Positions 24,337 to 62,185 are shown, numbered from the stretch's first letter. The stretch is 64,000 nt of DNA from an uncultured Candidatus Saccharibacteria bacterium (GCA_964426845.1 CAYRSA010000001.1:43237-107236), one strand, 5' to 3'. The notes: generated from the sequence alone by a model not told the origin. Made by a program: numbers and translations.

Positions 24337-24690
24337 ATGACCAAAAACTTTGAAGACACTATACTCTCACTACTGCGTGGCATGGACCAGCGTATGGACG
24401 GAATGGCAGGAGATATAGCCGAATTGAAGACTGGCTACAACCACCTCGACAAAAAAATAGACTTGGTAATCGATATTTTGGCCGAACACACCGCAAAGCT
24501 AAAAGAGCACGACGAGCGTTTTTCTCAGATAGACGAGCGTTTTTCTCAGATAGACAAACGATTCGATGAGCACGACAGAATGTTCCGGCAAATTATTGAT
24601 GGTGTCATACCAGAGATGGAGACACGTACTAAACATAGTATGAAGCTCAAAAACCACGAGCGACGCATCACTGCACTCGAGTCAGCCTAA
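24337..24690 (+). CDS. coiled-coil protein with heptad DERFSQI repeats
   Basis: 117 aa; contains a 21-bp tandem duplication (24511-24552); TATACT 6 nt before ATG. Confidence 0.55.
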   Translation: MTKNFEDTILSLLRGMDQRMDGMAGDIAELKTGYNHLDKKIDLVIDILAEHTAKLKEHDERFSQIDERFSQIDKRFDEHDRMFRQIIDGVIPEMETRTKHSMKLKNHERRITALESA

Positions 24691-24739
24691 ACTCTTCGTT
24701 GCCAACAACAGGGGAGTCCGCTATAATTTCAAAGCATAT

Positions 24740-24814
24740 TCCCGGGTAGCTCAATGGTGGAGCAAGAAGCTGTTAACTTCGAGGTTGCCGGTTCGAGTCC
24801 GGCCCCGGGAGCCA
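24740..24814 (+). tRNA. tRNA-Asn (anticodon GTT), CCA encoded
   Basis: 75 nt; acceptor TCCCGGG/CCCGGGA, D arm GCTC/GAGC, anticodon loop CTGTTAA, T arm GCCGG-TTCGAGT-CCGGC; TATAAT promoter box at 24722. Confidence 0.92.
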
Positions 24815-24860
24815 AGCATAAGCATTTTCTTTACATTTCTTAATGCGATATAATTAGCGT

Positions 24861-25271
24861 ATGGCTGAACGAATTATCGGGATAGGTGAAACGAGTTCTT
24901 TTCGCTACTTTGCAATTCAGCCGCCCCTCGAAGATGTCGAAGCTAAAGCTCTTATTGACACACTGCAGCTTCCGTTCAGGGCTTACTGGCCGATGAACTT
25001 TACGCAAGAGCGAAGGGCTGACAGCCCGGACCATACCGAATTTGGAATTGACGTTGGAGCCGCTATAGATTGGATTGGGCTAGAAGAAGTCGATGGTGGA
25101 GCCGTTGAGATAGCTCAACAAATAGCATCTATCCTCGCCCAGCAAGGAGACGATGTTGTTGTTCTTGAAGATATTGTATCTACGAGCTGGGAAGCTCCCA
25201 TTTTTGGGCAAGATGCTGACCACCAAAGGGAGCTTGCGGAATACTTTAGGTCGCATCCAGAGCAAGAATAG
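24861..25271 (+). CDS. cassette 1: hypothetical acidic protein (136 aa)
   Basis: TATAAT (24849-24854) 6 nt before ATG; no domain recognised. Confidence 0.6.
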   Translation: MAERIIGIGETSSFRYFAIQPPLEDVEAKALIDTLQLPFRAYWPMNFTQERRADSPDHTEFGIDVGAAIDWIGLEEVDGGAVEIAQQIASILAQQGDDVVVLEDIVSTSWEAPIFGQDADHQRELAEYFRSHPEQE

Positions 25272-25349
25272 TCCGAGCATCCATCACCACCGAGAGCCAA
25301 GCATAATCGGAATGAGGCCTGAGAGGGTCTCTTTTGTTATGATTAGTGT
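25272..25349 (+). repeat. junction J1 (short form)
   Basis: left arm TCCGAGCATCCATCACCACCGAGA; core GAGAGCCAAGCATAATC 25292-25308; hairpin GAGGCC-TGAGAG-GGTCTC plus TTTTG; TATGAT 25338-25343. Confidence 0.8.
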
Positions 25350-26222
25350 ATGCGAGACTATGTAGCTGAAGTTAAGGCAGCCTTTCCTGAGCTAAAGATT
25401 AAGAAAACAAAGCTCTATGAAAATGGCTGGGATTGTGTAGTCGTAGAAGTGAATAACAGTCTCATGTTCCGCGTGCCAAGAAAAAAACGAGACATGACCA
25501 ACGACTGGAAACTCTTGGACTTCCTATCGAAGAAGGCCCTATCCGTACCCGGTGGCAATGTTATCTCGGCGGACGGTGTCATTACTGGTTATGAGAAGCT
25601 CCCAGGGGAAGAACTAAGGCCAAAAGTCCTCGAGAACCTAGACCCAGCTTTGAAAGGTGATGCCCTAAATCAGATAGCTGATTTCCTGACAGAACTGCAC
25701 GGTCTGGATATCAAAGAAGTTGAGGCTCTCGGCTACCAGCCAAAGGCTCCAGATTATTTGTTCGACAAGGTGCGGGGATGGGTTGATAAGTACCTGCCGC
25801 AACGCTTAAGTGGGCCAGAAATGGAACGGGTTGAGAAGTTTATGCATGAATGGGAAGAAAACATCGGTGGCTACACAGCTTGTTTAGTTCATTGCGACTT
25901 TTCATCAGACCATATCTTGTACAACAAGGAAGACAGCAACATACGATTAGGCTTTATTGACTTCTCGGACAGCATCATCCACGACCCAGCCTGGGACTTC
26001 GCCAAGCTATTCGACTACGGTGAGAAAGCATTCAAGCACATACTTGGCAGGTACAAAACAGCAAACAACAAGCACGGGATTGACAAACGAGCAAGAATCT
26101 ACAGAGAACGAACCTATGTATGGCACTTAGTTGACCCCTTCTTAGACCTGCCGTACTTACCCTTTGACTTTGAAACGGCATTGAAAGATTTCAGAGCTAA
26201 CATGATGTCAGAGAAAGATTAG
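25350..26222 (+). CDS. cassette 2: aminoglycoside/small-molecule phosphotransferase (APH family kinase)
   Basis: 290 aa; catalytic HCDFSSDHILY and IDFSD motifs of the APH/choline-kinase fold. Confidence 0.8.
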   Translation: MRDYVAEVKAAFPELKIKKTKLYENGWDCVVVEVNNSLMFRVPRKKRDMTNDWKLLDFLSKKALSVPGGNVISADGVITGYEKLPGEELRPKVLENLDPALKGDALNQIADFLTELHGLDIKEVEALGYQPKAPDYLFDKVRGWVDKYLPQRLSGPEMERVEKFMHEWEENIGGYTACLVHCDFSSDHILYNKEDSNIRLGFIDFSDSIIHDPAWDFAKLFDYGEKAFKHILGRYKTANNKHGIDKRARIYRERTYVWHLVDPFLDLPYLPFDFETALKDFRANMMSEKD

Positions 26223-26314
26223 TTCTAACGTCCGTCACTACCGAGACCCAAGCATAAGCGGGATGAGAAAGAGGCAGGAATACATCTTTTGATATCTTGG
26301 GATATACTGTAAAT
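26223..26314 (+). repeat. junction J2 (short form, unique right arm)
   Basis: left arm AGTTCTAACGTCCGTCACTACCGAGA; core GAGACCCAAGCATAAGC 26243-26259; TATACT 26303-26308. Confidence 0.75.
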
Positions 26315-26812
26315 GTGATTAAAATTGAATTTGTTCCTGAATCTGAAAGTTTTACTCCAGCAGCTAGTGAATATGCTGATATATGGAACGCTGATGGTTC
26401 TCGAGTGGTAGAAGCAATACAAACCGTGACTGGCTTACCCCTGGAAGAAGAAGTCCAAGCAGTGGTCTTTGAGGGGATAAGCCGCTCACACCCTCTTAAG
26501 TTCAGAGCTAGTTATGATAGAGAAACTAAAGCAGCTACTATTGTGCACGAGTTGTTGCACAGGGTTTGTGTTGCTAATCATCTTAAATTACCAGTGGATG
26601 ACGAAGACCGAGGCATAGCTGCTCACAAACAGATTGACCTGGCACTCTATGACATTTGGCGCAGTCTATATGGTCAAGAGTTTGCAGATAGACAGGTAGC
26701 AATTGAGTCTGAGAGAGCAAACGGTAAATACCGTGAAGCTTGGGGTTGGGCACTATCAATGTCAGAGCAAGAACGACAAGCTAAATTTGCTTCATTAATT
26801 CCCAAAGAATAG
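26315..26812 (+). CDS. cassette 3: hypothetical protein with HExxH-like motif (VHELLH)
   Basis: ORF track starts at TTG 26297; GTG 26315 lies exactly 6 nt after TATACT, as in the other cassettes. Confidence 0.55.
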   Translation: MIKIEFVPESESFTPAASEYADIWNADGSRVVEAIQTVTGLPLEEEVQAVVFEGISRSHPLKFRASYDRETKAATIVHELLHRVCVANHLKLPVDDEDRGIAAHKQIDLALYDIWRSLYGQEFADRQVAIESERANGKYREAWGWALSMSEQERQAKFASLIPKE

Positions 26813-26955
26813 TTCTATCTTCCATTGTTTTGGACAGAACCATAATCTGACCATAGTACTTGGTACGAAGTACGTCAGCTATAGGGAGCCAAGCATAAGC
26901 ACTTTGAAGGTGTTAAAACCTAGACATATATCACGTTTTGTGGTATTTTTAGTTT
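26813..26955 (+). repeat. junction J3 (long form)
   Basis: left arm AGTTCTATCTTCCATTG; insert CCATAATCTGACCATAGTACTTGGTACGAAGTACGTCAGCTA from 26840; exact core 26884-26900; right arm CCTAGACA..TTTTGTGGTATTTT; TATTTT 26944-26949. Confidence 0.85.
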
Positions 26956-27459
26956 GTGTCAGTTCGTGTTACTACTGAAGAAGCCCGAGAGTATGTAGCC
27001 TCCAAATTACATGGCCTCGAAACTCCTCGAATGATGAGGTTTCCGACAATGGGCAATCATCTTGCATCTGCAATCATTTGGGCTGCCTGTGGTGAGGAAG
27101 GACAAAGACACGATATTGGGTTTTATTACACTTCCTTCAGGATTATTAGCCCAAGACCGTTCGAACAAAACTTGCAAAGAAGTCAACTTTGGCTAGACGC
27201 CCTGGAGAACTTTGAAGAATATGAATGGGGAGCGCGTGAGAGGCTTAGAAATGGTGAAAGTGACAATATTTTAGACGGTCTCGATTGGGAGACGGCTGCT
27301 CAGTGGAAGTTTGATGATTGGCCAGTCGATATTTTCGCGGTTAACTCGCTTGGAGAGGCAGCAAAAGTTTCACACATGGGCGGATTTGTAGACTTAGATG
27401 ATACAAGCTGGCCTATCGTTCAGTCTTCAATTCACTATGGGATAGCAGAGCAGTTCTAA
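26956..27459 (+). CDS. cassette 4: hypothetical protein (167 aa)
   Basis: GTG start 6 nt after TATTTT; no domain recognised; its TAA stop is the second stop of the AGTTCTAA motif. Confidence 0.55.
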   Translation: MSVRVTTEEAREYVASKLHGLETPRMMRFPTMGNHLASAIIWAACGEEGQRHDIGFYYTSFRIISPRPFEQNLQRSQLWLDALENFEEYEWGARERLRNGESDNILDGLDWETAAQWKFDDWPVDIFAVNSLGEAAKVSHMGGFVDLDDTSWPIVQSSIHYGIAEQF

Positions 27460-27576
27460 TTTCTTTCAGCTCTGCCATTGCCATAATCTGACCATAGTAC
27501 TTGGTACGAAGTACGTCAGCTAGAGGGGCCAAGCATAAGCACTTTGAAAGAGGTGCTTTTTTGTTAGTATTAGAGC
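27460..27576 (+). repeat. junction J4 (long form)
   Basis: insert from 27481; core with 1-nt deletion GGGGCCAAGCATAAGC 27525-27540; hairpin AGCAC-TTTGAAAGAG-GTGCT plus TTTTTTG; TAGTAT 27565-27570. Confidence 0.85.
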
Positions 27577-28224
27577 ATGAAAGTTGCGATTACAGGAGCG
27601 AACGGAAAAGTTGCACAGGCATTGATTGGCCAGCTTGACCCTGAACGATTTGAAATTACTAAACTAGACATCCCAGACCACGACTCAGCTAATCTGGATG
27701 CCTTAATTGCTGATACCAAGGGTCATGACGCACTTATTCATCTGGCCTGGAAAGACCTAGACGTAGGCTCTGTTGACCCAATCAATGGGGTTATGTACGA
27801 GAACGCCTACAGAGCGGCTGTGGCAAACGGAATTAGTCTTGTTATGATGGGTAGCTCCAACCATGCTAGAAGCCACGAGCAGCGTGAAGCTGATGGTCGG
27901 ATACGATACACAGGCCAAGCCGAATTAGCTAATAACCTCTATGGGGTGGAGAAGCAGAAGATGGAGGCAATGGGGAGGCTGTTTGCTGCAACAGAAGGGT
28001 TGTCAGTGCTCTGTGTGCGTATCGGCAATATTAATCCAGAAGATGAACCACGCCCCGACGTGCCGACCAGGTGGATGAGTCACAGAGACTGGGGAAACTT
28101 TGCAAGTCTTGCTTTAGAGTACGCTTTTCCTGAAGGGCATTTCGAGATAGCTTATGGCGTAAGCGACCAACCTATCTTCGACTGGACTAATTCATTTGGT
28201 TACGAGCCACAAGACAAAGCTTAG
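27577..28224 (+). CDS. cassette 5: NAD(P)-binding Rossmann protein (epimerase/dehydratase-like, short)
   Basis: 215 aa; MKVAITGANGKVAQAL glycine-rich dinucleotide motif. Confidence 0.65.
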   Translation: MKVAITGANGKVAQALIGQLDPERFEITKLDIPDHDSANLDALIADTKGHDALIHLAWKDLDVGSVDPINGVMYENAYRAAVANGISLVMMGSSNHARSHEQREADGRIRYTGQAELANNLYGVEKQKMEAMGRLFAATEGLSVLCVRIGNINPEDEPRPDVPTRWMSHRDWGNFASLALEYAFPEGHFEIAYGVSDQPIFDWTNSFGYEPQDKA

Positions 28225-28353
28225 CTCTAACTTCCATCACACCCGACATCGCCATAATCTGTCCGTAATACTTAGTACGAAGTACGTCAGCTAGAGGAAG
28301 CCAAGCATAAGCGGAATGAGACCTGAGAGGGTCTCTTTTGTTATGATTAAGAA
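28225..28353 (+). repeat. junction J5 (long form)
   Basis: left arm AGCTCTAACTTCCATCACACCCGACA; insert from 28251; core GGAAGCCAAGCATAAGC 28296-28312; hairpin GAGACC-TGAGAG-GGTCTC plus TTTTG; TATGAT 6 nt before ATG. Confidence 0.85.
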
Positions 28354-28839
28354 ATGGGTGTTAAGAACTATCTGATTGAAGGTGTCTCAGGAACAGGCAA
28401 AAGCTCGGTTTGCCAGGAACTTAGGCGTCGTGGCTACGATGTGGTGGATGGCGATAAAGAGCTGGCTTATCAAGGTGACCCTGAAACAGGCGAAAAGACA
28501 GAAGGGCATACTCACCAACACCACATCTGGAATGAAGCTAAAGTCCGTAAAATTGCTTCAGACCACACAAAGTCAGTTACTTACTTTTGTGGTGGTTCAA
28601 GAAACTTCAGCAGGTTCTTAGACGTGTTCGACAGGATATACATCCTGGATGTTGACGAAGCAACCCTAAACGACCGACTAGACAGTAGGGATGGATGGGG
28701 TAAAGAAAAATCTGAACGTGAATTAGTATTAAGGCTTCATGAGAGCAAGGAAGACTTGCCACAAGACGGTATAGAGATAGATGCCACGGAGCCACTGTCA
28801 AAAGTGGTGGATAAAATCATTAGCTCATCAGAAGCCTAG
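28354..28839 (+). CDS. cassette 6: P-loop kinase-like protein
   Basis: 161 aa; GVSGTGKSS Walker A at the N-terminus. Confidence 0.6.
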   Translation: MGVKNYLIEGVSGTGKSSVCQELRRRGYDVVDGDKELAYQGDPETGEKTEGHTHQHHIWNEAKVRKIASDHTKSVTYFCGGSRNFSRFLDVFDRIYILDVDEATLNDRLDSRDGWGKEKSERELVLRLHESKEDLPQDGIEIDATEPLSKVVDKIISSSEA

Positions 28840-28907
28840 TTATAACATCCCCCACTACTAAGAGCCACAACCTAGACAAATTTCACTTTTTGTGGTATTT
28901 TAGTGAT
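28840..28907 (+). repeat. junction J6 (degenerate short form)
   Basis: left arm AGTTATAACATCCCCCACTACTAAGA; only GAGCCA of the core retained, then CCTAGACAAATTTCACTTTTTGTGGTATTTT (same right arm as J3); TATTTT 28896-28901. Confidence 0.7.
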
Positions 28908-29453
28908 ATGAATGTCCGTAGAGAAACCGACCCGCAATCACCAACGTCTCCCATACTTGCTAGGTGGTTGGCATATGATGATGAATATTGCGAGCACGAT
29001 ATTACGCTAGAAACTGCTGGCGGCCGACATGGCATAGGCATTTGGAAAGAAGAAGGTGAGATAGTTGTAGCTACCGGAAACCTTTGGGTTGATGAAAAAA
29101 TGCGTCAAACTGGCGTCGGTACTAGGCTACTTAAAGCCGGTCTTGTATTGGCCAAGAGCCACGGAGCCACAATATCAAGCTCTGATGTCTACTCGCCCCA
29201 TGCATTAAAAATTAGGCAAAATATATTTGGTGAAAACAATCTTAGATTTTGGGACGCATCCAACTTCAATATAGGTGAGCTACCTATTTCAGTAAGTCAA
29301 GCAATTATGTCTCTTGAGCGGGCTGCCCAGAGTGCCGAAGAGTATAGAACAAGCGAAGAGGGATTTATCGTTAGGTCTGTACTTGCCGATGTAGATATGT
29401 GCGACTGGGAGCAACCTATAGAAGTGAACGCTCCTGACCTGCCAACGGACTAA
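28908..29453 (+). CDS. cassette 7: GNAT-like N-acetyltransferase
   Basis: ORF track starts at TTG 28890; ATG 28908 is 6 nt after TATTTT; acetyl-CoA loop-like MRQTGVGTRLLKAGLVLAKSHGA. Confidence 0.55.
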   Translation: MNVRRETDPQSPTSPILARWLAYDDEYCEHDITLETAGGRHGIGIWKEEGEIVVATGNLWVDEKMRQTGVGTRLLKAGLVLAKSHGATISSSDVYSPHALKIRQNIFGENNLRFWDASNFNIGELPISVSQAIMSLERAAQSAEEYRTSEEGFIVRSVLADVDMCDWEQPIEVNAPDLPTD

Positions 29454-29594
29454 TACTCTTTTTCCATCACTTCCGAGAGCGCCATAATTTGACCGTAGTA
29501 CTTGGTACGAAGCAAGTCAGCTAGAGGGAGCCAAGCATAAGCGATATGAGACCTGAGAAGGTCTCTTTTGTTGTTTGTGGGGTATACTATCTGT
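29454..29594 (+). repeat. junction J7 (long form)
   Basis: left arm TACTCTTTTTCCATCACTTCCGAGA; insert from 29481; exact core 29526-29542; hairpin GAGACC-TGAGAA-GGTCTC plus TTTTG; TATACT 29583-29588. Confidence 0.85.
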
Positions 29595-30284
29595 ATGAAA
29601 CTTGCAGGTGAAACAGCGGTTATAGTCGGTGGAAGCCAAGGAATCGGGCGGGCGCTGGCCGAAGGACTGCTCCACGAAGGTGCCAATGTTGTAATCGCTA
29701 GTCGAACCCAAGAAACAGTAGAAAAGACTGCTGAAGAAATTGGTGCAGAGGCTTTTGTTGTAGACGTACGTGAAGAACAGGACTTAAGAGACCTTGCTGC
29801 TTTTGCAATCGAGACTTTTGGTGGAATTAACTTATGGGTCAATAGTGCGGGTCAATTCAAGAAGTTTCCCAAGGAAGACCTCCTTGACATGGAAAGAGCT
29901 CATGAGATGTTTGACGTAAACTTTTTTGGTGCTGTACTTGGCTCAAGAACAGCATTGCTCAATATGGAAGACGGTGCATTAATTAACTTACTATCCAGCG
30001 CAGCACTCGATGCCACTCGGTCTGTTGGAGCTAAGTTATATGCATCAAGCAAGTGGGCACTGCGGGGCTATGTAGATGCATTGCGTGGTGAAAATCCAGA
30101 CAGTCCAGTAAGAATACTTTCTGTTTATCCAGGTGGCACGAAGTCACACCTACATGACGAAGCTCTGCCCGATGAATTTGCAAATTTTATGGAGCCAGAG
30201 CATGTTGTTGAGAAAGTTATCGCAAACTTGCTACTCGAAGAGCCAGAACTAGATTTAGTTATTAAGCGACCGTCAGTAAGCTAG
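29595..30284 (+). CDS. cassette 8: short-chain dehydrogenase/reductase (SDR)
   Basis: ORF track starts at TTG 29568; ATG 29595 (MKLAGETAVIVGGSQGIGRA) is 6 nt after TATACT; YASSK catalytic motif. Confidence 0.85.
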   Translation: MKLAGETAVIVGGSQGIGRALAEGLLHEGANVVIASRTQETVEKTAEEIGAEAFVVDVREEQDLRDLAAFAIETFGGINLWVNSAGQFKKFPKEDLLDMERAHEMFDVNFFGAVLGSRTALLNMEDGALINLLSSAALDATRSVGAKLYASSKWALRGYVDALRGENPDSPVRILSVYPGGTKSHLHDEALPDEFANFMEPEHVVEKVIANLLLEEPELDLVIKRPSVS

Positions 30285-30402
30285 GCCTACCCCAAGCAAT
30301 CTCCATAACCTGACCGTAATACCTGGTAAGAAGTACGTCAGCTAGAGGGAGCCAAGCATAAGCGCTTTGAATAAGGTGCTTTTTTGTTAGTATTAGGCCA
30401 GT
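30285..30402 (+). repeat. junction J8 (long form, most diverged)
   Basis: left part GCCTACCCCAAGCAATCTCCATAACC; insert from 30302; exact core 30347-30363; hairpin AGCGC-TTTGAATAAG-GTGCT (A-T, G-C, C-G, G.U, C-G pairs) plus TTTTTTG; TAGTAT 9 nt before ATG. Confidence 0.8.
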
Positions 30403-31635
30403 ATGTCAACAGTCTCTTTTATTCGTTCTCCATGTGAGGTCCTGGTACTTGATGAGGTCAAGACTGGGTCTCGATTTCTTGAACTTCCACCTCCCGAATA
30501 CACAGACAGGGAATATGAAGAGGTCTTCCGAGATGCACAAGCAAGGCTAGGGCTTGAAGATTTAGAGCCTGTTCATGAAGGAGGGAAAACAAAACTTGTA
30601 GCCCCTGACGGATACAAGTTTCGGATAACTGGAGCTTTTACCCTCTGGCCAGACGGTAATGATATTTCCTGGGGCTATGGACCTCCTACGGACAGTTACG
30701 AAGAATGGCGCAGACAAAATCAGGGTAGCTTGGCTAGGTATGAGGCTGAGGGGTTAAGTCCTGAAGAAGCTGAGAAACGGGTTGCTGACGGAGAATGGGA
30801 GACAAGTACATATGGCATTCCGAGTATTGAATATTATGAAGGCCCAAGTCTGACATTTTCTTTTGATGACGTGGAGTGGGGAGGAATTGTGCCAACAGAC
30901 AGAGAAAGCAGACACTCTTCTGATGATGGGCCGCCCACTGTTAAGGTACGACTAAGTCATTATAGGGAAACTTGGTTAGAGCAAGCGCGTAGGCATATAA
31001 AACTGCCTAATAGCGAAAATGACAGATTGCTTGCAACCCACCAATACGGACAGCCCGGAATAATTCCTTGCTGGAAGGGTGGACACAGTGATGGTGATAT
31101 AGAAAATATCGCGATTGAACTTGTACCAATCGGTGAAGACGATGGAGACAAAGAATTGCCTATGCTGAAAAGATTGTGGGTACCCGAGAATGTACGATGG
31201 ACTTTATATGAAGACTTCCCCGACTTAATAGACCAAGATGGCGACGAAGCAAGCCGCACGGACATGGGAGGTGCAATGCGCATGTTTGGGGAAGTTATGG
31301 GGCTTCTTGGTGGTTCAGACCAGAATATGTTTGACCAATTAAGCGCGGAAAGCAGATTAGCAGTCGTCGACCACCCTATGCTTGCTCATATGGATACTGG
31401 GAAGTTAGCAGAAGCCGTTGAGGAGCTTATTCAAATCACAAATGAGCAAGAACCAGGGAAAGATAGAGAGCGAGAGAGAGAAGAGGAAAATGCTAAAAAG
31501 ATGGAAGCAAAACGGAAACGACTCGTAGTTATAACAGACTTGGACGAAAGTATTCATTCGGTTGCTCGAAGAATAGGGGCAGACGACACTTGGCTCGAAG
31601 ACCACGCTCGCTATGTCAATAGCTTTGACTGGTAA
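30403..31635 (+). CDS. cassette 9: hypothetical acidic protein (410 aa)
   Basis: long ORF, no domain recognised; C-terminal charged EREREEENAKKMEAKRKR stretch. Confidence 0.6.
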   Translation: MSTVSFIRSPCEVLVLDEVKTGSRFLELPPPEYTDREYEEVFRDAQARLGLEDLEPVHEGGKTKLVAPDGYKFRITGAFTLWPDGNDISWGYGPPTDSYEEWRRQNQGSLARYEAEGLSPEEAEKRVADGEWETSTYGIPSIEYYEGPSLTFSFDDVEWGGIVPTDRESRHSSDDGPPTVKVRLSHYRETWLEQARRHIKLPNSENDRLLATHQYGQPGIIPCWKGGHSDGDIENIAIELVPIGEDDGDKELPMLKRLWVPENVRWTLYEDFPDLIDQDGDEASRTDMGGAMRMFGEVMGLLGGSDQNMFDQLSAESRLAVVDHPMLAHMDTGKLAEAVEELIQITNEQEPGKDREREREEENAKKMEAKRKRLVVITDLDESIHSVARRIGADDTWLEDHARYVNSFDW

Positions 31636-31771
31636 TGTGAAGTTCTAGCTTCCACAGCCTTCGCCATGGCCATAATCTGACCATAATACTTAGTACGAAG
31701 TACGTCAGCTAGAGGGAGCCAAGCGTAAGCGTTTTGAGACCTGGAAGGGTCTCTTTTGTTATACTAGGACA
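31636..31771 (+). repeat. junction J9 (long form)
   Basis: left arm GAAGTTCTAGCTTCCACAGCC; insert from 31669; core GGGAGCCAAGCGTAAGC 31714-31730; hairpin GAGACC-TGGAAG-GGTCTC plus TTTTG; TATACT 31760-31765. Confidence 0.85.
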
Positions 31772-32218
31772 ATGGATTTACACGAACTTGCAAAAGAGTA
31801 TCTAGGCAGTGTCAAGCACATGCAACTTGCTACCGTCAAGAATGGTCAGCCATGGATTTGTACCGTCTATTTTGTGGCTGATGACGATTACAATTTTTAT
31901 TGGACGTCGGGCCGAGACAAGCAACACTCGGTTGAAATAAAATCTGATCCAAGAGCCGCGGCTACCGTAGTTCTAGACACTGATAAAAAACGAGCTCTAC
32001 AGATGGCGGGTAGTGCCGAGGAAGTCAGTGATGAGGAGTTAGAGCGCGTACACCAGCTATACCAGTCAAAATTTGGCTCAAAAGACTATGATTTAGAGGA
32101 AATGAAACAGCACAAGGCCGTCGGCCGAGCCTATTGGAAGTTTAAGCCTTCTGTAGCCATGTTTTGGGACGAGGTTAACTTCCCAGACACGCCAAAACAA
32201 CGCTTGAATCTGGTATAA
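31772..32218 (+). CDS. cassette 10: pyridoxamine 5'-phosphate oxidase-family (FMN-binding split barrel) protein
   Basis: 148 aa; N-terminal HMQLATVKNGQPWICTVYF pattern typical of PNPOx/general-stress-26-like proteins. Confidence 0.7.
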   Translation: MDLHELAKEYLGSVKHMQLATVKNGQPWICTVYFVADDDYNFYWTSGRDKQHSVEIKSDPRAAATVVLDTDKKRALQMAGSAEEVSDEELERVHQLYQSKFGSKDYDLEEMKQHKAVGRAYWKFKPSVAMFWDEVNFPDTPKQRLNLV

Positions 32219-32331
32219 TAACCTCGTTGATAAGTCCAGATAACGGATAGACCTTGTCCTCGCAAGGAACAACTATTTACTGGCTAACATTATAAAAGAG
32301 GCTCACTATTAACATAATAAGGAGTCATCTG

Positions 32332-32490
32332 ATGTCAAAAATGACAAAAGAAGAAGAAATCGACTGGTACGAGCGGTCCAAGAAACATTGGCGTTCGTGG
32401 GGTTCGTGGTTCAGTTGGGGCTCTCCTGTCGGGTTAGGACTATTTTTCCTAGCCTGCGCCGGAGCCATCTGGATCATTGCTCAGATATAG
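32332..32490 (+). CDS. small Trp-rich membrane protein (52 aa)
   Basis: SD AAGGAG 7 nt upstream; MSKMTKEEEIDWYERSKKHWRSWGSWFSWGSPVGLGLFFLACAGAIWIIAQI; below ORF-track cutoff. Confidence 0.45.
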   Translation: MSKMTKEEEIDWYERSKKHWRSWGSWFSWGSPVGLGLFFLACAGAIWIIAQI

Positions 32491-32685
32491 AGCAATCAGC
32501 AGGGAAGCAGGGCGTCACAACATGGCGCTCTGTTTTTGTCTTTTGTAGACAAGCACCCACTTTTGTGATATTTTCCATTATATGCCCTTAAGAATTGATG
32601 AGACTACGCCTTTTGACTTGGTACGAGAGCTGTCTCCAACCCGGCACGCCGCTACCGCTGCTAGAGATAGACCCCTAGACACCGA

Positions 32686-32928
32686 TTAGATTATCGGCAG
32701 GTCCTCGACAGGCTGATCGAGTATTTTAGCTAGTAGCTCGATCTGTTGAAACTTACAGTATTTAATTGGAGCTCCGGCGGCGTCATAAATCCGGTAGTAG
32801 TGGGTGAAGGTGACTGTTTCACCTTTGAAGTTCTTGGCCTGTGTGGGCTTTTCGATTCGCCTAATTGTCCAGCCGGCTGGCTGGTCGGCTAGAATGCGCT
32901 TGATCTTGGCGTAGTGGTTGAAAGGCAT
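32686..32928 (-). CDS. hypothetical protein (80 aa)
   Basis: ORF track extends to 33123, but ATG 32928 (MPFNHYAKIKRIL...) lies 7 nt after TATACT and avoids overlap with the divergent gene. Confidence 0.5.
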   Translation of the reverse strand: MPFNHYAKIKRILADQPAGWTIRRIEKPTQAKNFKGETVTFTHYYRIYDAAGAPIKYCKFQQIELLAKILDQPVEDLPII

Positions 32929-33002
32929 TAATAAGAGTATATCAATACATAAGTCCAGAAGCCCCGTCTCTCGACAAAACACTGTTATTATGGTATCCTT
33001 TA

Positions 33003-33770
33003 ATGATGACAGAACATCAGCCAAGACTACCGGATAATGCCTGGTTCCCTGGGGAGCAGGTCGCCAGTTGGGAAGGCCGCCGCTTTGGCTACCGAGCCCT
33101 TTTTGAAGCCATCGTCGATCCATCTACCTTTAAAGAGATTTGTAATTCAGCCGGACAGGACGAGCTGATTGAATTATTTGAGCCTACTGAGAACGATAGT
33201 CTATCGATCACCATGTTAGGCGAATACGACGAACCTACTGGTGAACCGGTTGTACTAAGCATTGAAAACCCAGCCACAATCTTAACACATGGCTCGCGTT
33301 TCATACTTGATGCTACTGCCTCCAGCGAACCTTTCGCTTACACCTGCACTTTATACGGAGAAAAGCCTTTGAGACTTGATTACTTCGCTCTGGGTGATCG
33401 GGAGCGTCCTGTCAGATTCATAGAAACTCTAGCTATCAAAGATGGAGTCGAGTGCGATGTCTATGAGCTCGACGGCGACGATACACAGGATTTGGCTATA
33501 GTTCGGGTCGCCAAGGGCTCATCTACACCACGCCAACGTGTGCTACAGGGCGACTTAACGATTGAAGGCCATGTATCAGGCGAAGGCGAATTAGTTATCG
33601 CTAGAGCCAACGGCAACAAAGAAGTATACCCTTTCAGAGATGATTTACGTACACGGCCAGTGCAGGTAGATATCGGTGACACCATGCGCTGGACAGCAAT
33701 TGGAGATCTCGTTTTCTATGAAATATGCCAGCCGCCCTACGCCGAAGGCCGCTATCAAGACCTAGATTAA
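33003..33770 (+). CDS. hypothetical protein, C-terminal cupin-like barrel
   Basis: 255 aa; C-terminal GDLTIEGHVSGEGELVIA...GDTMRWTAIGDLVFYEI suggests a beta-barrel; weak call. Confidence 0.5.
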   Translation: MMTEHQPRLPDNAWFPGEQVASWEGRRFGYRALFEAIVDPSTFKEICNSAGQDELIELFEPTENDSLSITMLGEYDEPTGEPVVLSIENPATILTHGSRFILDATASSEPFAYTCTLYGEKPLRLDYFALGDRERPVRFIETLAIKDGVECDVYELDGDDTQDLAIVRVAKGSSTPRQRVLQGDLTIEGHVSGEGELVIARANGNKEVYPFRDDLRTRPVQVDIGDTMRWTAIGDLVFYEICQPPYAEGRYQDLD

Positions 33771-33803
33771 GCCAATTGCCGCAACTAGTGGTACACTATT
33801 ATC

Positions 33804-34283
33804 ATGATGGTTAAGCTTGTCTCGTACTTGCGATATGCTCTAGGTGGCGCTGGTTTATATTTTGCCTTCAGTCAACTGGCCGCTAGCCCAGCCGAAGCTG
33901 TAGCCACTGCCACTCTATACACTGTGGGAGCCGTAGGAATTCTCAGTTTTGTCAGCCATGCCCTCCTACACGAAGGCGATGCCAAGATGATTGGCTTCAG
34001 CAGTAAAACACCTAGTTTCCAGTTCGAAGTTGGCTTCGCTAATCTAGCTTTTGGTGTGGTAGCCTTGATCAGTTACGTCGATGGCTGGGGCATCAGAGCC
34101 AACACCACTCTGTTACTAGCTTACTCTTTGTACCTACTCCAAGCCGGAATCTTGCATTTCGCCGAATCCCGCCGAAAGAAGAAAATGAGCCAAACCAACC
34201 TCATTAGGGCTATGGTCACTTTTGCATACAGCGGAGCTATGCTGTACATCGCCGCCCACGCTATCAGCTCGAGCTCCTTCTAG
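33804..34283 (+). CDS. hypothetical polytopic membrane protein (159 aa)
   Basis: 4-5 hydrophobic segments; TGgTACACT 6 nt before ATG. Confidence 0.6.
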   Translation: MMVKLVSYLRYALGGAGLYFAFSQLAASPAEAVATATLYTVGAVGILSFVSHALLHEGDAKMIGFSSKTPSFQFEVGFANLAFGVVALISYVDGWGIRANTTLLLAYSLYLLQAGILHFAESRRKKKMSQTNLIRAMVTFAYSGAMLYIAAHAISSSSF

Positions 34284-34329
34284 CCATTTACAAGCGGAGT
34301 ATAATAGAGGCATTAACCAAGGAGGGATT

Positions 34330-34557
34330 ATGTCTGCAAAAGAATTAAACCTAAAACCAGGTAAGTGGGTAGTGGCCGACTGTGGCTCGATGCCCAGCGA
34401 CAGCAACTGCCAATTAGTCATATTGGCTCCTGAGGACCAGAAGGCTGATTTAGTAGATGCCGGCGTCAAGCATGCCGTTGCCAAGCATGGCCACGAAGAA
34501 AGCGACGAGCTGAGGAAGGGCGTTGAAGGCATGTGCGAGGTCGTCGAAATCGCATGA
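34330..34557 (+). CDS. DUF1059-like small metal-binding protein (75 aa)
   Basis: start set to ATG 34330 behind SD AAGGAGGGA; Cys pair plus His-rich KHAVAKHGHEE. Confidence 0.6.
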   Translation: MSAKELNLKPGKWVVADCGSMPSDSNCQLVILAPEDQKADLVDAGVKHAVAKHGHEESDELRKGVEGMCEVVEIA

Positions 34558-35204
34558 AAATAACCAAGCTAGTTCACTCTTGCTTACTGGTCGAGAAAGA
34601 GAATACTCGGATACTTGTCGATCCCGGCAACTACAGCTGGGCCAGTGGATTGGTCGGCGAAGATCACATGAAAGATTTGAGCGCCGTGGTGGTCACTCAC
34701 GCTCATCCCGACCATCTGCATCAAGATTTCGTCGAAGCTATCAACAAGGGCTCGCCCAAAGCTGTTTGGTACGGTCCGCAGGAAGTAGTCGATCAACTTA
34801 GCGAGTGGGACATAAATGGCAGGACTACGAGCGACGACGTCAACGTCAAGTTTATTGATTCAAAGCACGCCGACTTGTCGCCATGGTTCGGCCAACAGCC
34901 CGACCATACCAGTTATGTGCTGTTCGGCGACCTGATAATTGGCGGTGACTGTCACACGCTTGACCAATCTCACGGAGCCAGAATCTTCGGCGCCGCAGTC
35001 AGTGGCGGCCCCTGGGCCGGAGTGGTGGGCTTTGCCAAAATGATCGAAGCTATGACAGACCGGCCAGCCACCGTAATCCCTCTACATGACTGGCATTGGA
35101 ACGAAGAGGCCAGGGCTGGTATCTATGACCGACTGCCAGATGTGCTGGGCCAATTTGACGTCAGCTTTGTACCGCTAGAGAACGGTAAAACCGAAGAGCT
35201 GTAA
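34554..35204 (+). CDS. MBL-fold metallo-hydrolase
   Basis: start set to ATG 34554 (ATGA overlap with upstream stop); THAHPDH zinc motif. Confidence 0.8.
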   Translation: MKITKLVHSCLLVEKENTRILVDPGNYSWASGLVGEDHMKDLSAVVVTHAHPDHLHQDFVEAINKGSPKAVWYGPQEVVDQLSEWDINGRTTSDDVNVKFIDSKHADLSPWFGQQPDHTSYVLFGDLIIGGDCHTLDQSHGARIFGAAVSGGPWAGVVGFAKMIEAMTDRPATVIPLHDWHWNEEARAGIYDRLPDVLGQFDVSFVPLENGKTEEL

Positions 35205-35235
35205 CATACGAAGATGCTCGGTGTATAATAAGGCC

Positions 35236-35547
35236 ATGCCCACAACCATCGTTTCCGCCGGTCCGGCTCATAAAATGCCGGCCGATCTGGGTAAAGCCCT
35301 GGCGGCTGACCCAAAAGCTCTGGCCAAGTGGGAGAGTCTGACGCCACTGGCTCGTAATGAGTGGATTTGCTGGAATGTGACCGTCAAACAGGAGGCCACC
35401 CGCAAGAATCACATAAAGAGAACTGTTACTGAACTCAAGGAAGGTAAGCGCCGCCCCTGTTGCTGGATGGGTTGTGTGCATCGGACCGACAAGCCGATCA
35501 GCCCAACCATGAAATGGATTCTAGAAAAACAAGGAGGTAAGCGATGA
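35236..35547 (+). CDS. YdeI/OmpD-associated family protein
   Basis: start ATG 35236 is 6 nt after TATAAT; PADLGKALAADPKALAKWESLTPLARNEWICW is typical of the family. Confidence 0.7.
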   Translation: MPTTIVSAGPAHKMPADLGKALAADPKALAKWESLTPLARNEWICWNVTVKQEATRKNHIKRTVTELKEGKRRPCCWMGCVHRTDKPISPTMKWILEKQGGKR

Positions 35548-35999
35548 CAATAACCCCAAACCTGTGGTTCGACGGCAATGCCAAGGAAGCGGTGGACTTT
35601 TACGTCTCGGTCTTCCCGGACAGCAAGATAACCTCGACCGAATACTACCCCGAGACGCAAGAGGAGGGTCTAGCCGACTTTCAGAAAAGCCTGGCCGGCA
35701 AAGTGCTGACCATTGAGTTCGTGCTATCCGGCAACCCCTTTGTCGCCATCAACGCCGGTCCAGAGTTCAAATTCAACGAATCGGTTTCCTTCTCGGTGCC
35801 TTGCAAAGACCAAGCAGAAATCGACTACTTCTGGGAAAAACTATCCAAAGTACCCGAGTCCGAGCAGTGTGGCTGGTGCAAAGATCAATTTGGCCTGAGT
35901 TGGCAAATCGTGCCGGCCAATATGAGCGAGCTAATGAAGCGCCCTGATGCTTTCAAGAAGATGATGGAGATGCACAAGCTGATTATTGCTGACTTCTAG
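35544..35999 (+). CDS. VOC/glyoxalase-superfamily protein (PhnB-like, 3-demethylubiquinone-9 3-methyltransferase-domain family)
   Basis: 151 aa; MTITPNLWFDGNAKEAVDFYVSVFPDSKI and CGWCKDQFGLSWQI are signatures of this family. Confidence 0.85.
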   Translation: MTITPNLWFDGNAKEAVDFYVSVFPDSKITSTEYYPETQEEGLADFQKSLAGKVLTIEFVLSGNPFVAINAGPEFKFNESVSFSVPCKDQAEIDYFWEKLSKVPESEQCGWCKDQFGLSWQIVPANMSELMKRPDAFKKMMEMHKLIIADF

Positions 36000-38256: not shown

Positions 38257-40092
38257 ATGTCAGAACAACGTAATGGTCCGCGCGAGGAAGAAGTTTTCCA
38301 GACTCAACTGGCGTCAATCGTAGATAGACCTTTGGACCCCAGAAGTATTGATACTTACGCTGACGACATCCTGAATGACTTGATCGCTTTTTCTAGCGAG
38401 GTACGTGATAGGTATGCCGCAATAGACGGCCGGGCATATTCAAGCCTTAAGGATGTCGAAGACGCAGCGTTTGCTCATTTTGACCTTGAGGATATGGATG
38501 AGCTACTGGACTTCGTTCAAAGGAAAGCCGACGCCATTCACTCACTTGATGCTGTAATAGGCAAGGCCACCGAAGTTAACAAAGTTATTACACCCCCTGA
38601 AACAGAGTCTAGTCTGTCACAAGGGTATGAGCCGTTTGAGCCCAAGGAAATAATCCCAAAGTTAAAAACTACACTATTTGTTTTGCTCAATAACTTTGAA
38701 ATTGATGTTGCAGACCCCGATCAACTAAGACTTACCCGGGGCGTACTCGATCAACGTATGATGCGCAGACAAAGCTATTATATGCTTGAGGTCTTAAAGA
38801 TCGACCGTATAGCCCTAGTATGTGACGAGGGTGATAACGTTACCTTTGTATTTGACACAGCCCGCCTGAAAGAACTAGGAATATCGGCCAGTGATCTCGC
38901 TGATCTGCCAAAGCCAGATCTTGAAGACATAATCAAAAACGAGCCGAACAGTGGTAAGCGGTTCATTTATAGCAAAAACTACGCAGGCCGAATGCTCGAC
39001 GCACTACAGGATCCGACTACTGCGAATCGTCCTGAGCCCCCTGATAATGGGGAGTTACGCCTGGTAGTAGCCGCTCCAGAGAATTACCTAAGTACTAAGG
39101 GTCTTTGTGCGAAGCTGGGTGTAGGCAGTGTTGCTATCAAGAAAGTCCTCGAGGAACTTGGTGAAGCTTTAGGAGAAACACGCCCTTATAAATTTGGTTC
39201 CAAAACGACCGTTGGATATTCTCCGCAACAGCAAGCTATGATTGAAACAGCTATAGAGGCTGATGGCCCCCGGACTATGCCAGACGGGTATCTCAACACA
39301 AGAAATATTGCCTCTATAACCGGCCTGGATTGGCCTTTAGTTAATAAAGTCATTGAAAGCCTGGGCGAGGAGCTGGGAGAGGTTTATAAATACCGGTCAG
39401 CCGGAAAGTTAGTTTCCGCCTTTAGCCCAGAACAACAGGATCTTATTCTGGAGAACATTCAGATTATTCCTGATGCGCCCGAGGGCTATTTGTCACGAAC
39501 AGGTATAAATGCTGCCACTGGCTTTAGTCATGATTTATTAAGGAAAGCAATCGCTGCTGTCCGCGATGAATTGGGCGAACCAACAATTCTCAAGGGGAAG
39601 ACAGGAGTAGGCACTGAGTTCTTTTCTCCAGAAAAACAAGAAATTATTATGGATTACCTCTCTAGGGAAGGTTTTTTGGCTAGTGACGCGCCGGAGGGTT
39701 ACCTGACCGTTGCGGGCATTGCTAGTCATTTTGGTATATCTAGCAATGCTGTCAATACCGCAACTGAAGTAATTGGAGAAGAATTAGGCCCAGCCCATAG
39801 GTATAAAGTGCAATCACATGTTGCGCTTACTTATTCACCGGACCAAATCGCTAAGATTCGTGAACACCTGGAGTTGAATAAAAAGTTGGCCGGGCGGCCG
39901 CCTGAGGGTTTTATGTCCATCAGACGCGTCGCAACACAATATGGACATTCAACCGACACCGTCTGGAAAGCTTTGGATGAGTTAGAAGACGAACTTGGAG
40001 AGATAGCAGACCACAAGTATGGATCTGTGGTTACAAAAAGCCTGTCGCCAGAACAGCAACAAATATTGATACGCCACATGGAGAAGATATAG
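38257..40092 (+). CDS. hypothetical 611-aa protein with 5 C-terminal tandem ~65-aa HTH-like modules
   Basis: repeats from 39070: APENYLSTKGLCAKLGVG..., MPDGYLNTRNIASITGLD..., APEGYLSRTGINAATGFS..., APEGYLTVAGIASHFGIS..., PPEGFMSIRRVATQYGHS..., each ending ..YSPEQQ..I; TGtTATAAT 6 nt before ATG. Confidence 0.75.
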   Translation: MSEQRNGPREEEVFQTQLASIVDRPLDPRSIDTYADDILNDLIAFSSEVRDRYAAIDGRAYSSLKDVEDAAFAHFDLEDMDELLDFVQRKADAIHSLDAVIGKATEVNKVITPPETESSLSQGYEPFEPKEIIPKLKTTLFVLLNNFEIDVADPDQLRLTRGVLDQRMMRRQSYYMLEVLKIDRIALVCDEGDNVTFVFDTARLKELGISASDLADLPKPDLEDIIKNEPNSGKRFIYSKNYAGRMLDALQDPTTANRPEPPDNGELRLVVAAPENYLSTKGLCAKLGVGSVAIKKVLEELGEALGETRPYKFGSKTTVGYSPQQQAMIETAIEADGPRTMPDGYLNTRNIASITGLDWPLVNKVIESLGEELGEVYKYRSAGKLVSAFSPEQQDLILENIQIIPDAPEGYLSRTGINAATGFSHDLLRKAIAAVRDELGEPTILKGKTGVGTEFFSPEKQEIIMDYLSREGFLASDAPEGYLTVAGIASHFGISSNAVNTATEVIGEELGPAHRYKVQSHVALTYSPDQIAKIREHLELNKKLAGRPPEGFMSIRRVATQYGHSTDTVWKALDELEDELGEIADHKYGSVVTKSLSPEQQQILIRHMEKI

Positions 40093-44109: not shown

Positions 44110-44156
44110 TCCAAGATTATACTATATTACTCTAATATTATCAAGGGTGGGGTAGT

Positions 44157-44846: not shown

Positions 44847-44897
44847 GCATAAGCAATTATGCTATTATTACAACAACCATTAAAAAGGACTCTTATT

Positions 44898-45518: not shown

Positions 45519-45527
45519 CTCTACCAG

Positions 45528-47649: not shown

Positions 47650-47770
47650 TTGTAGAAGTCCTGTTAGTATTCTTAACTACCCTAATATTGCATACCAATT
47701 GTTAAATGATTATTAACTTTTTAGTTAATTTTTATGGTGCTTTTTACAACCAGCTTGTAAGGAAAAGTTG

Positions 47771-48514: not shown

Positions 48515-48714
48515 ATCCTTACTTTACCAAAGCACTTATTAAATAGTGCTTAACTTGTAAAAATACTAGGTGAATACCTCGTTTAATAAATAGTAAGTTG
48601 GGCTATTTAATGGATAGGAAATAGTTCGCTTCAGTAACTTTACACCTTAGAGTACGTATAGGGTCTATACAAAATAATGCGATAGTGTATAATTATGTAA
48701 GAAAGTTATATGCT

Positions 48715-62111: not shown

Positions 62112-62185
62112 ATGCGTCAAATTGTACTACATTTACCCCAAGAGATGATATACTTTTATCTGTTAGACAAGCATAAGTTATACCT

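Follow-up and report, generated by a model that had tools for sequence, protein, structure and literature searches.

Background

Integrons, including sedentary chromosomal integrons and CALINs, are co-oriented arrays of mostly one-gene, mostly promoterless cassettes with accessory-type enzymes as cargo. A recombination site begins at or over each stop codon and units are gained or lost at the platform-proximal site. The tyrosine recombinase gene intI, whose product carries an IntI-specific insertion, lies adjacent to attI and the Pc promoter, although the recombinase need not lie next to every array (as in CALINs), and attC sites are imperfect palindromes (R''-L''...L'-R') that fold into a hairpin with extrahelical bases. 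Tycheposons and other tRNA-targeted integrative islands are anchored at the 3' end of a tRNA gene, reiterate the tRNA end between units and accrete in tandem, so that newer units displace older ones and closely related strains differ by whole units (10.1101/2020.12.28.424599). These elements are 3-15 kb, each carries its own tyrosine or serine recombinase, often with replication genes, and they are flanked by partial tRNAs of about 40 nt. In other integrating elements the att site overlaps coding sequence, as in the SSV-type split integrases of archaea and the dusA-specific islands (PMC4482086), and reiterated att copies therefore carry coding fragments without their own start codon, while the parent gene (int or dusA) is known and present.

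Here we analyzed a locus next to a tRNA-Asn gene in a Saccharibacteria (CPR) genome, within a stretch of 64,000 nucleotides referred to as the window (GCA_964426845.1 CAYRSA010000001.1:43237-107236). About ten single-gene units, each probably expressed from its own promoter, follow the tRNA, and nearly all end in the same short recombination-type site. Like integron cassettes, the units are co-oriented, mostly carry one gene and have a site at the stop codon; unlike in an integron, the platform is the end of a tRNA gene instead of attI beside intI. Compared with tycheposon-type islands, the units are only 0.5-1.4 kb, contain no recombinase, share only 8-14 nt with the tRNA and share a stereotyped 3' module.

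Architecture of the array

Both ARAGORN and Rfam (RF00005, 63.6 bits) identified the tRNA-Asn(GTT) gene. The 17-mer GGGAGCCAAGCATAAGC, composed of the last 8 nt of the tRNA and the next 9 nt, had 10 matches at up to 3 mismatches in the window, against 0.21 expected. Nine of these lay at 24807-31730, at the coordinates given in the initial annotation, while the tenth (5547, 3 mismatches) had no flanking similarity. One + strand ORF was found between consecutive copies. The initial annotation was also correct that junction J6 (the junction after unit 6) keeps only GAGCCA and that no repeat follows the last ORF, c10. However, the starts of c3, c7 and c8 needed correction to those listed in Table 1. 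The left arm, which had been assigned to every junction, was clear in J1, J2, J3, J5, J6 and J9, partial in J4 and J7, and weak in J8. Furthermore, only 8 nt (10-14 nt in the short forms) are shared with the tRNA, and the 10-mer CAAGCATAAG also occurs twice outside the array, at 44844 and 62168.

Table 1. Features of the tRNA-Asn locus, in window coordinates
Feature	Coordinates	Strand	Description
tRNA-Asn(GTT)	24740-24814	+	Anchor of the array; CCA is encoded; promoter-like TTGCCA-17-TATAAT at 24699-24727
Core copy 0	24807-24823	+	GGGAGCCAAGCATAAGC; contains both breakpoints of the strain polymorphism
Unit 1	24824-25308	+	Own upstream module (TATAAT, 6 nt, ATG); ORF c1 24861-25271 (136 aa, no family); short-form 3' module 25269-25308 (core 25292-25308)
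Unit 2	25309-26259	+	Hairpin plus T-run 25314-25331; TGTTATGAT; ORF c2 25350-26222 (APH-type phosphotransferase, PF01636, 1.5e-19); short-form 3' module 26220-26259 (core 26243-26259)
Unit 3	26260-26900	+	ORF c3 26315-26812 (GTG start, 165 aa, HExxH motif, no family); long-form 3' module 26810-26900 (core 26884-26900)
Unit 4	26901-27540	+	TAGACA-17-TGgTATTTT promoter-like site; ORF c4 26956-27459 (167 aa, no family; stop codon inside AGTTCTAA); long-form 3' module 27452-27540 (core with a 1-nt deletion)
Unit 5	27541-28312	+	Hairpin plus T-run 27537-27558; TGTTAGTAT; ORF c5 27577-28224 (NAD-epimerase-like); long-form 3' module 28222-28312
Unit 6	28313-28868	+	Hairpin plus T-run 28318-28335; ORF c6 28354-28839 (P-loop kinase, AAA_18); degenerate short 3' module 28837-28868 (only GAGCCA at 28862-28867)
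Unit 7	28869-29542	+	TAGACA-17-TGgTATTTT; ORF c7 28908-29453 (ATG start, GNAT-like); long-form 3' module 29451-29542
Unit 8	29543-30363	+	Hairpin plus T-run 29548-29565; TATACT; ORF c8 29595-30284 (ATG start, SDR); long-form 3' module 30282-30363
Unit 9	30364-31730	+	Hairpin plus T-run 30360-30381; ORF c9 30403-31635 (410 aa, orphan family); long-form 3' module 31641-31730
Unit 10	31731-32218	+	Hairpin plus T-run 31736-31753; TATACT; ORF c10 31772-32218 (PNPOx-like); no 3' module
Coding-type tail of J3	26811-26891	-	WLPIADVLRTKYYGQIMVLSKTMEDRT
Coding-type tail of J4	27452-27531	-	Frame broken by the 1-nt deletion next to the core
Coding-type tail of J5	28223-28303	-	WLPLADVLRTKYYGQIMAMSGVMEVRA
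Coding-type tail of J7	29453-29533	-	WLPLADLLRTKYYGQIMALSEVMEKEY*
Coding-type tail of J8	30283-30354	-	WLPLADVLLTRYYGQVME...
Coding-type tail of J9	31641-31721	-	WLPLADVLRTKYYGQIMAMAKAVEART
Downstream genes (tentative)	32219-35999	+	Co-oriented small accessory-type genes without recognisable junctions

Each junction has three parts: a 3' module starting at the stop codon, an invariant core (AGCCAAGCATAAGC in this lineage and GGGAGCCAAG across lineages), and a terminator-like hairpin followed by a -10 box 6 nt before the start codon, a leaderless design. There were 16 terminator-like sites against 6.5 +/- 2.1 expected, six of them in junctions. TANNNT ended exactly 6 nt before the start codon in 9 of 10 units, compared with 2.6% of all ATGs, indicating that the cassettes are probably not promoterless. 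The cassette products are accessory-type enzymes (APH, GNAT, SDR, kinase, PNPOx). Since unit 10 has no 3' module, it is either the resident gene of the original site or the oldest unit. The array has lower GC than its flanks, and lower GC with positive GC skew extends up to about 33 kb. The genes downstream of unit 10 are possibly older decayed units.

A profile search (nhmmer) with the long junction found significant copies only at 24.8-31.8 kb, so within the 64 kb examined the element is not a dispersed terminator repeat. Since the junctions contain terminator-like hairpins and lie strictly between genes, a mobile intergenic repeat of MITE or REP type that spread through a pre-existing cluster of immobile genes was considered. 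This is very unlikely, because all copies have the same orientation, no palindromic structure was found, the strain polymorphism described below involves whole gene units rather than repeats, the same repeat flanks unrelated genes elsewhere, and the same gene occurs with and without it.

Comparison with integron and other recombination sites

The junctions resemble attC sites in starting at or over the stop codon, and TTCTAAC resembles RYYYAAC. However, single-stranded DNA folds of whole junctions on either strand were no better than shuffled sequence (z from -1.3 to +1.4). RNAalifold found no conserved or covarying pairs (-1.9 kcal/mol) in the 66-nt tail-plus-core region of 8 long-form copies, and there was no R''/R' complementarity in general. 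Together with the probable promoters and the failure to find intI in the window, these folds, obtained without the attC covariance model, make a divergent CALIN with unusual attC sites highly unlikely.

No tyrosine or serine recombinase, transposase or HUH domain was found with Pfam in about 66 window ORFs (nearly all of those of 150 aa or more), nor with PHROGs or NCBIfam among the orphan ORFs. No recombinase was found in up to 20 kb around four related loci either. The core shows no obvious dyad symmetry of the kind found in a tyrosine-recombinase core site, as read directly from the sequence. The pdif/Xer modules of Acinetobacter plasmids are probably one- or few-gene modules moved by a recombinase encoded elsewhere, with 28-bp XerC/XerD dyads in alternating orientation. 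In contrast, all cores here are direct repeats anchored to a tRNA, and no dif-like dyad was seen by eye around AGCCAAGCATAAGC.

Strain polymorphism at the tRNA-proximal site

The initial annotation had interpreted the locus as a serially loaded cassette platform that uses tRNA-Asn as its attachment site, with an enzyme that acts in trans or has been lost. This interpretation was supported by strain comparison. Four contigs from other samples (L003, L004, L008 and L010), with an identical SmpB and a 99.7% identical left flank, stopped matching the window at exactly 24823 and then carried a different three-gene unit that ends in the long repeat. In two further samples (L032 and L033), c1-c4 were 99.9% identical from exactly 24807 onward, but were preceded by ACGTCAGCTAGA of a long-form repeat instead of the tRNA. 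Thus a whole unit is present or absent between tRNA-Asn and c1, and both junctions fall within the 17-nt core, although the polymorphism could be a deletion between two 17-nt direct repeats rather than an insertion. The upstream module stayed with the downstream gene (it travels with c1 in L032 and L033) and the 3' module stayed with the upstream gene, while tail types and upstream-module types combined freely.

An alternative is that transformation and RecA-type recombination swap, delete or duplicate units without a dedicated recombinase, with the 60-130-nt junctions as portable homology arms. Natural competence and recombination-based gene replacement are shown for Saccharibacteria (PMC10633639), no recombinase was found in the searches above, and junction copies are 66-96% identical over 50-120 nt. 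In addition, 3 of the 4 SNPs in 2.7 kb between L032 and the window lay in one 73-nt tail, that of unit 4, and two of them recreate the variant of another junction, suggesting gene conversion and showing that homologous exchange is active among the junctions. However, the tRNA side and a cassette junction share only 17 nt, which is too short for ordinary RecA-type recombination. The core is invariant at the nucleotide level while the adjacent tail drifts at synonymous sites, which suggests a protein-recognised site rather than generic homology. This mechanism can spread existing arrangements but cannot create the first tRNA-core-unit junction, and as the sole explanation it is unlikely.

We therefore favour, with moderate confidence, a chromosomal gene-cassette platform whose attachment site is the 3' end of tRNA-Asn plus a few trailer bases. 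Each mobile unit would consist of a terminator-like hairpin with an extended -10 promoter, one gene (occasionally two or three), a 30- or 81-nt 3' module and the core. Units would enter or leave by conservative site-specific recombination between two cores, served by a recombinase encoded elsewhere and acting in trans. The tRNA would stay intact, every unit would be insulated from its neighbour and expressed on its own, and earlier units would be pushed away from the tRNA. Homologous exchange and gene conversion between junctions would additionally reshuffle and homogenise the array. The recombination chemistry, the direction of the events, circular intermediates, promoter and terminator activity and the trans-acting enzyme are inferred. 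The initial annotation knew of no described system with this architecture; this holds for the architecture but not for the principle, as tRNA-anchored accretion of cargo units is known from tycheposons.

Coding-type conservation of the 3' module

Unexpectedly, the 3' module was conserved as a peptide on the opposite strand (WLPLADxLRTKYY; pN/pS 0.31, no stops). The left arm and the apparent hairpin are in fact a coding-type relic on the minus strand. The peptide has no start codon, and no full-length protein carrying the motif was found among 1.84e9 representative proteins or in viral contigs. There was no Pfam hit at E<=10 and no PDB hit, although 20-30 aa is too short for a decisive test. 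This conservation is unexplained and is not predicted by a pure DNA-site model. As in the elements whose att site overlaps coding sequence, att-adjacent sequence appears protein-coding, but here no parent gene could be found and the anchor is a tRNA.

The relic could be the end of an element gene that overlapped attP, each unit being the remnant of a larger tRNA-Asn-targeting element that once carried its own integrase. The documented tandem accretion at tRNAs, with newer elements pushing older ones inward (10.1101/2020.12.28.424599), and homologues of c9 and of c8 next to T4SS genes in other genomes are in line with this. On the other hand, there are ten stereotyped one-gene units whose 3' module always starts at the stop codon, and independent random deletions would not give identical boundaries. 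No integrase fragment was seen in any of about 25 units in 5-6 genomes, and neither the 10 units nor those of the related loci L001, L003, L012, L030 and L031 contain a recombinase-sized ORF or domain. Such decayed tandem elements are thus a doubtful explanation.

It is possible, but only tentatively proposed, that an integron-analogous gene-capture system arose independently in Saccharibacteria. A recombinase of unknown, possibly new, family encoded away from the array would load self-expressed cassettes at the end of tRNA-Asn. The 3' site would be derived from, and still constrained as, a short protein-coding sequence whose product or parent gene is part of the mechanism. The tandem-HTH protein that recurs near these sites is a candidate partner.

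Occurrence in other genomes

The same junction element separates unrelated genes in at least four other Saccharibacteria genomes, represented by CAYVSP010000026.1, Ga0105044_10338973, SRR16630578 and Ga0558080 contigs. The element is rare, being found in one species among the GTDB representatives and in one JGI contig. A 72% aa homologue of the c8 SDR lies in the L012 array with another neighbour and a short-form 3' module, whereas an 83% homologue lies in an ordinary operon with no repeats in GCA_003962975.1. The L012 homologue of the MBL-fold gene (34533-35204) is followed by a long-form junction, but the window copy is not. Homologues of c9 lie next to tRNA-Trp, next to a core-like site and inside a T4SS element. 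A parallel case exists at tRNA-Trp in the L028 locus, where tRNA-Trp 3'-end repeats are present.

Structure of the array

ARAGORN and Rfam placed a tRNA-Asn(GTT) gene at the head of the array. The 17-mer GGGAGCCAAGCATAAGC, which spans the last 8 nt of this tRNA plus 9 nt of trailer, had 10 matches at up to 3 mismatches, against 0.21 expected. Nine of them were located between 24807 and 31730, in agreement with the initial annotation. A profile of the long junction found significant copies only at 24.8-31.8 kb of the window, and a repeat search gave the same families. When the long form was compared by eye with the tRNA, it matched beyond 8 nt only at chance level. Searching viral contigs with the bare 17-mer gave nine hits, all chance and without flanking similarity. 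The right half of the core, CAAGCATAAG, also occurred twice outside the array (9 copies in the window against 0.23 expected). Both extra copies were found 5-8 nt upstream of a start codon, that of a PsbP_2-like gene and that of a sortase gene, the second being about 57 nt from a tRNA-Leu; they could be secondary sites or a promoter-like motif.

One + strand ORF was found between consecutive copies. Gene calls on sibling contigs and the promoter spacing corrected the starts of three of them, c3, c7 and c8. Six of the ten products were assigned by Pfam, namely an APH-type kinase, an epimerase-like protein, a P-loop kinase, a GNAT, an SDR and a PNPOx, while the other four were orphans. The flanks consisted of housekeeping genes, with SmpB just upstream and ATP synthase further left. 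GC was slightly lower in the array (0.43-0.48 against about 0.50) and GC skew was strongly positive. Between smpB and tRNA-Asn there was a 117-aa coiled-coil ORF containing an exact 21-nt tandem duplication (DERFSQI x2), which matched a PHROG of unknown function (4e-9). A similar 83-aa coiled-coil ORF formed its own unit in the array of contig L001. The coordinates of the features are collected in the table.

Coordinates of the array features and of other features in the window and in other contigs (labelled L)
Feature	Sequence	Coordinates	Strand
117-aa coiled-coil ORF	window	24337-24690	+
Tandem 21-nt duplication within the 117-aa ORF	window	24511-24552	
tRNA-Asn(GTT)	window	24740-24814	
c3 corrected start (GTG)	window	26315	
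c7 corrected start (ATG)	window	28908	
c8 corrected start (ATG)	window	29595	
c9, 410 aa	window	30403-31635	
Small accessory-type genes right of the array	window	32219-35999	
ORF right of the array	window	33003-33770	
611-aa HTH protein	window	38257-40092	+
611-aa HTH protein homologue	L025	61-1947	
611-aa HTH protein homologue	L031	3904-5979	-
Defence- or mobile-type gene cluster	window	41422-49800	
CAAGCATAAG upstream of the PsbP_2-like gene (44859)	window	44844-44853	
CAAGCATAAG upstream of the sortase gene (62186)	window	62168-62177	
83-aa coiled-coil ORF	L001	3686-3937	
20-nt match AGCCAAGCATAAGCATTTTC	L025	2802-2821	
20-nt match AGCCAAGCATAAGCATTTTC	L026	707-726	
tRNA-Trp 3' end and second tRNA-like 3' fragment, with repeats	L028	5597-5671, 8161-8191, 9812-9840, 11075-11103	

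Each junction was composed of three parts. The first was a 3' module beginning on or over the stop codon, (T)AGTTCTAAC-TTCCATCAC, which occurred either as a short form of about 30 nt (junctions J1 and J2; degenerate in J6) or as a long form with 51 extra nt (J3, J4, J5, J7, J8 and J9). The second was the core, in which AGCCAAGCATAAGC was nearly invariant in this lineage. The third was an upstream module belonging to the next gene, which in six junctions was a GC hairpin followed by a T-run. Terminator-like sites numbered 16 against 6.5 +/- 2.1 expected, and six of them were in junctions. A TANNNT hexamer followed, usually with TG before it, and ended exactly 6 nt before the start codon in 9 of 10 units, against 2.6% of all ATGs in the window. 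About a third of other genes in the window had the same leaderless layout, so the cassettes use the normal promoter design of the organism, although promoter and terminator function are inferred from sequence only.

Strain variation at tRNA-Asn

In order to compare the locus between strains, sibling contigs were recovered by exact-protein look-ups. Four contigs (L003, L004, L008 and L010) had an identical SmpB and a 99.7% identical left flank, and matched the window up to exactly 24823, the last base of the core. They then continued with a different upstream module and a three-gene unit (PNPOx, alpha/beta hydrolase and a 105-aa protein) that ended in a long-form repeat. Conversely, L032 and L033, contigs from two other samples, carried c1 (L032 continued through c4) at 99.9% identity starting exactly at 24807. 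What preceded was ...ACGTCAGCTAGA, the end of a long-form repeat, rather than the tRNA body. A further contig, L011, had the arrangement of the window. So a whole unit is present or absent between tRNA-Asn and c1, and both breakpoints lie within the 17-nt core. The upstream module stayed with the gene that follows it and the 3' module stayed with the gene that precedes it, while the tRNA side and a cassette junction shared only these 17 nt. Exact-protein look-ups of c10 and of the ORF at 33003-33770 returned no record, so this comparison is confined to the left side of the array.

Homologous exchange was also indicated. L032 differed from the window at 4 positions in 2718 nt. Three of these were in the 73-nt c4 tail, all at third codon positions, and two recreated the variant of J5/J9, which looks like gene conversion among junctions. 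Together with the documented natural competence of Saccharibacteria (PMC10633639), this keeps a homology-driven mechanism possible for reshuffling inside arrays. However, it cannot account for the 17-nt-limited junction at the tRNA.

The junction element in other genomes

The same junction element separated unrelated genes in an 8.25 kb contig of another Saccharibacteria MAG (CAYVSP010000026.1), in a JGI contig (L012) and in two more distant contigs (L030 and L031), where it followed a RibD_C-type gene neighbourhood and a PIN toxin-antitoxin pair. The c8 SDR recurred in L012 at 72% aa identity, where it kept a homologous promoter segment but had a different upstream neighbour and a short-form 3' module. 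An 83% homologue in GCA_003962975.1 was located in an ordinary overlapping operon with no junction element and no tRNA. Genes therefore exist both inside and outside the cassette format.

The orphan 410-aa c9 family (44-49% identity among about 10 members) recurred in mobile-looking contexts in contigs L022-L029. Members were found inside a T4SS/conjugative-type gene cluster (L022-L024), directly after tRNA-Trp and next to a Fic gene (L028 and L029), and next to PLDc_2. In L025 and L026, a perfect 20-nt match, AGCCAAGCATAAGCATTTTC (the core plus the first bases of the right side of J0 in the window), was located about 60 nt upstream of a 46%-identical c9 homologue, overlapping the start of a 46-aa minus-strand ORF coupled to a PLDc_2 gene. 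In L028, the tRNA-Trp 3' end (TGCCCCTGCCAAA plus a terminator) was repeated after the pair of the c9 homologue and Fic, and a second tRNA-like 3' fragment (CCACTAGGGGCTGCCAAAA) was repeated twice further on, with no integrase present in the 17 kb. The 3' end of tRNA-Trp was reiterated downstream in L028 and L029, so tRNA-end-bounded small units may be more general in this lineage. Within the window, only tRNA-Asn showed this pattern.

Folding of the junctions and search for a recombinase

Whole junctions folded no better than shuffled sequence as single-stranded DNA on either strand (z from -1.3 to +1.4). RNAalifold found no conserved or covarying pairs in the 66-nt tail-plus-core region of eight long-form copies, and the CTGAC...GTCAG and GTACTT...AAGTAC pairings seen by eye in the long form were not conserved. 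The defining feature of attC was therefore absent, and a reading of the junctions as attC sites was rejected on these grounds. A REP or MITE was likewise not supported, since the element was not dispersed in the window.

No recombinase, transposase or HUH domain was found with Pfam in about 66 window ORFs (nearly all of those of 150 aa or more), nor with PHROGs and NCBIfam among the orphans. The possibility that c9 is a hidden recombinase was also considered, but there was no family hit and the AlphaFold model was too poor to use (pLDDT 54), although no fold search was made.

A coding-type signature on the minus strand

Unexpectedly, when the long-form module was read on the minus strand in the frame that starts with TGG (the reverse complement of the CCA of the tRNA), it gave WLP[LI]AD[VLM]LRT[KQ]YY[GD]x[IV][ML]..., while the short form gave WLSVVMEVRT. 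The long form equals the short form plus an in-frame 51 nt. Over 10 copies of 22 codons, this frame had no stops, with pS = 0.39 and pN/pS = 0.31, whereas the other five frames had 9-24 stops. Across 14 distinct sequences (12 clear copies), Arg was CGT six times and AGA five times, Leu was CTT, CTC, TTG or TTA, and Gly was GGT, GGA or GGG. Third codon positions varied twice as much as second positions. In L030 and L031 the peptide was kept although the codons differed heavily. By contrast, the core itself was conserved at the nucleotide level.

Yet no nearby in-frame ATG, GTG or TTG preceded the tail at any window junction. Only J7 had distant TTGs, 48 and 100 codons upstream, and these were inside antisense c8. 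The ATG inside the core was 1 nt out of frame in this lineage, whereas in L031 an extra C put it in frame. A word-indexed search found no protein sharing words with the peptide in a database of 5.8e9 sequences. A full HMMER profile search of 1.84e9 representatives found only three ORFs of 36-57 aa, which are further copies of the element, and a back-translated pattern gave no hit in viral contigs. A by-eye resemblance to the catalytic-Tyr box of tyrosine recombinases had no statistical support. We cannot explain this signature. It could be a relic of an element gene that overlapped the att site, continually re-seeded from an autonomous element that has not been sampled, a micro-protein that is made in some lineages, or the result of translation by an unconventional route. 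Peptide-type conservation of a recombination-site module that has no ORF is a puzzle in itself, and explaining it may reveal the missing recombinase or show how such cassettes are made, a question that remains open for integrons too.

Comparison with known systems and probable mechanism

Functionally the locus behaves like an integron, with cassette gain or loss at a platform-proximal site and co-oriented single-gene accessory cargo. It differs from integrons in that no attC was found, no intI was found in the window, and the cassettes have their own inferred promoters. It shares with tycheposon-type islands (10.1101/2020.12.28.424599) the tRNA anchoring and the accretion in which newer units push older ones. 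However, its units lack recombinases, are 0.5-1.4 kb long and share a stereotyped 3' module. No description of such arrays in Saccharibacteria or CPR was found in the literature searched, which was incomplete.

The main point of the initial annotation, that the array is a serially loaded cassette platform using tRNA-Asn as its attachment site, was supported, although the direction of the event at the tRNA (insertion or deletion) is inferred. The most likely mechanism, which we hold with moderate confidence, is site-specific recombination at the core by a trans-encoded, unidentified recombinase, with homologous exchange as a secondary process or as the main rival. CPR/Patescibacteria have tiny genomes, and how they acquire genes is poorly understood. 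This locus shows a compact, modular way of adding and removing single accessory genes, each with its own inferred terminator and promoter, at a safe site next to a tRNA. It would be a second, independently evolved solution to the problem that integrons solve. The core and junction modules could also serve as a natural landing pad for genetic engineering of Saccharibacteria.

Genes to the right of the array

To the right of the array there were further co-oriented small accessory-type genes (a DUF6790 protein, an MBL-fold protein and a glyoxalase-like protein) without junction repeats. As the L012 homologue of the MBL-fold gene is followed by a long-form junction, these may be older units whose sites have decayed.

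A 611-aa protein was encoded 6.5 kb from the array. It has an unannotated N-terminal domain of about 270 aa followed by about five tandem 70-aa wHTH-like repeats (...APEGYLS..GIA...ELGE..YKFG...YSPEQQ...). Its homologues were located 0.9-1.1 kb from a core-like site (L025) or a junction element (L031). No Pfam, NCBIfam or PDB assignment was found, and the single-sequence AlphaFold model of the N-terminal domain was useless (pLDDT 39). The protein may be a DNA-binding partner of the system. Further right, a cluster of defence- or mobile-type genes was identified, including a ResIII/SNF2 helicase (895 aa), RadC, Fic/DOC and a two-component system.
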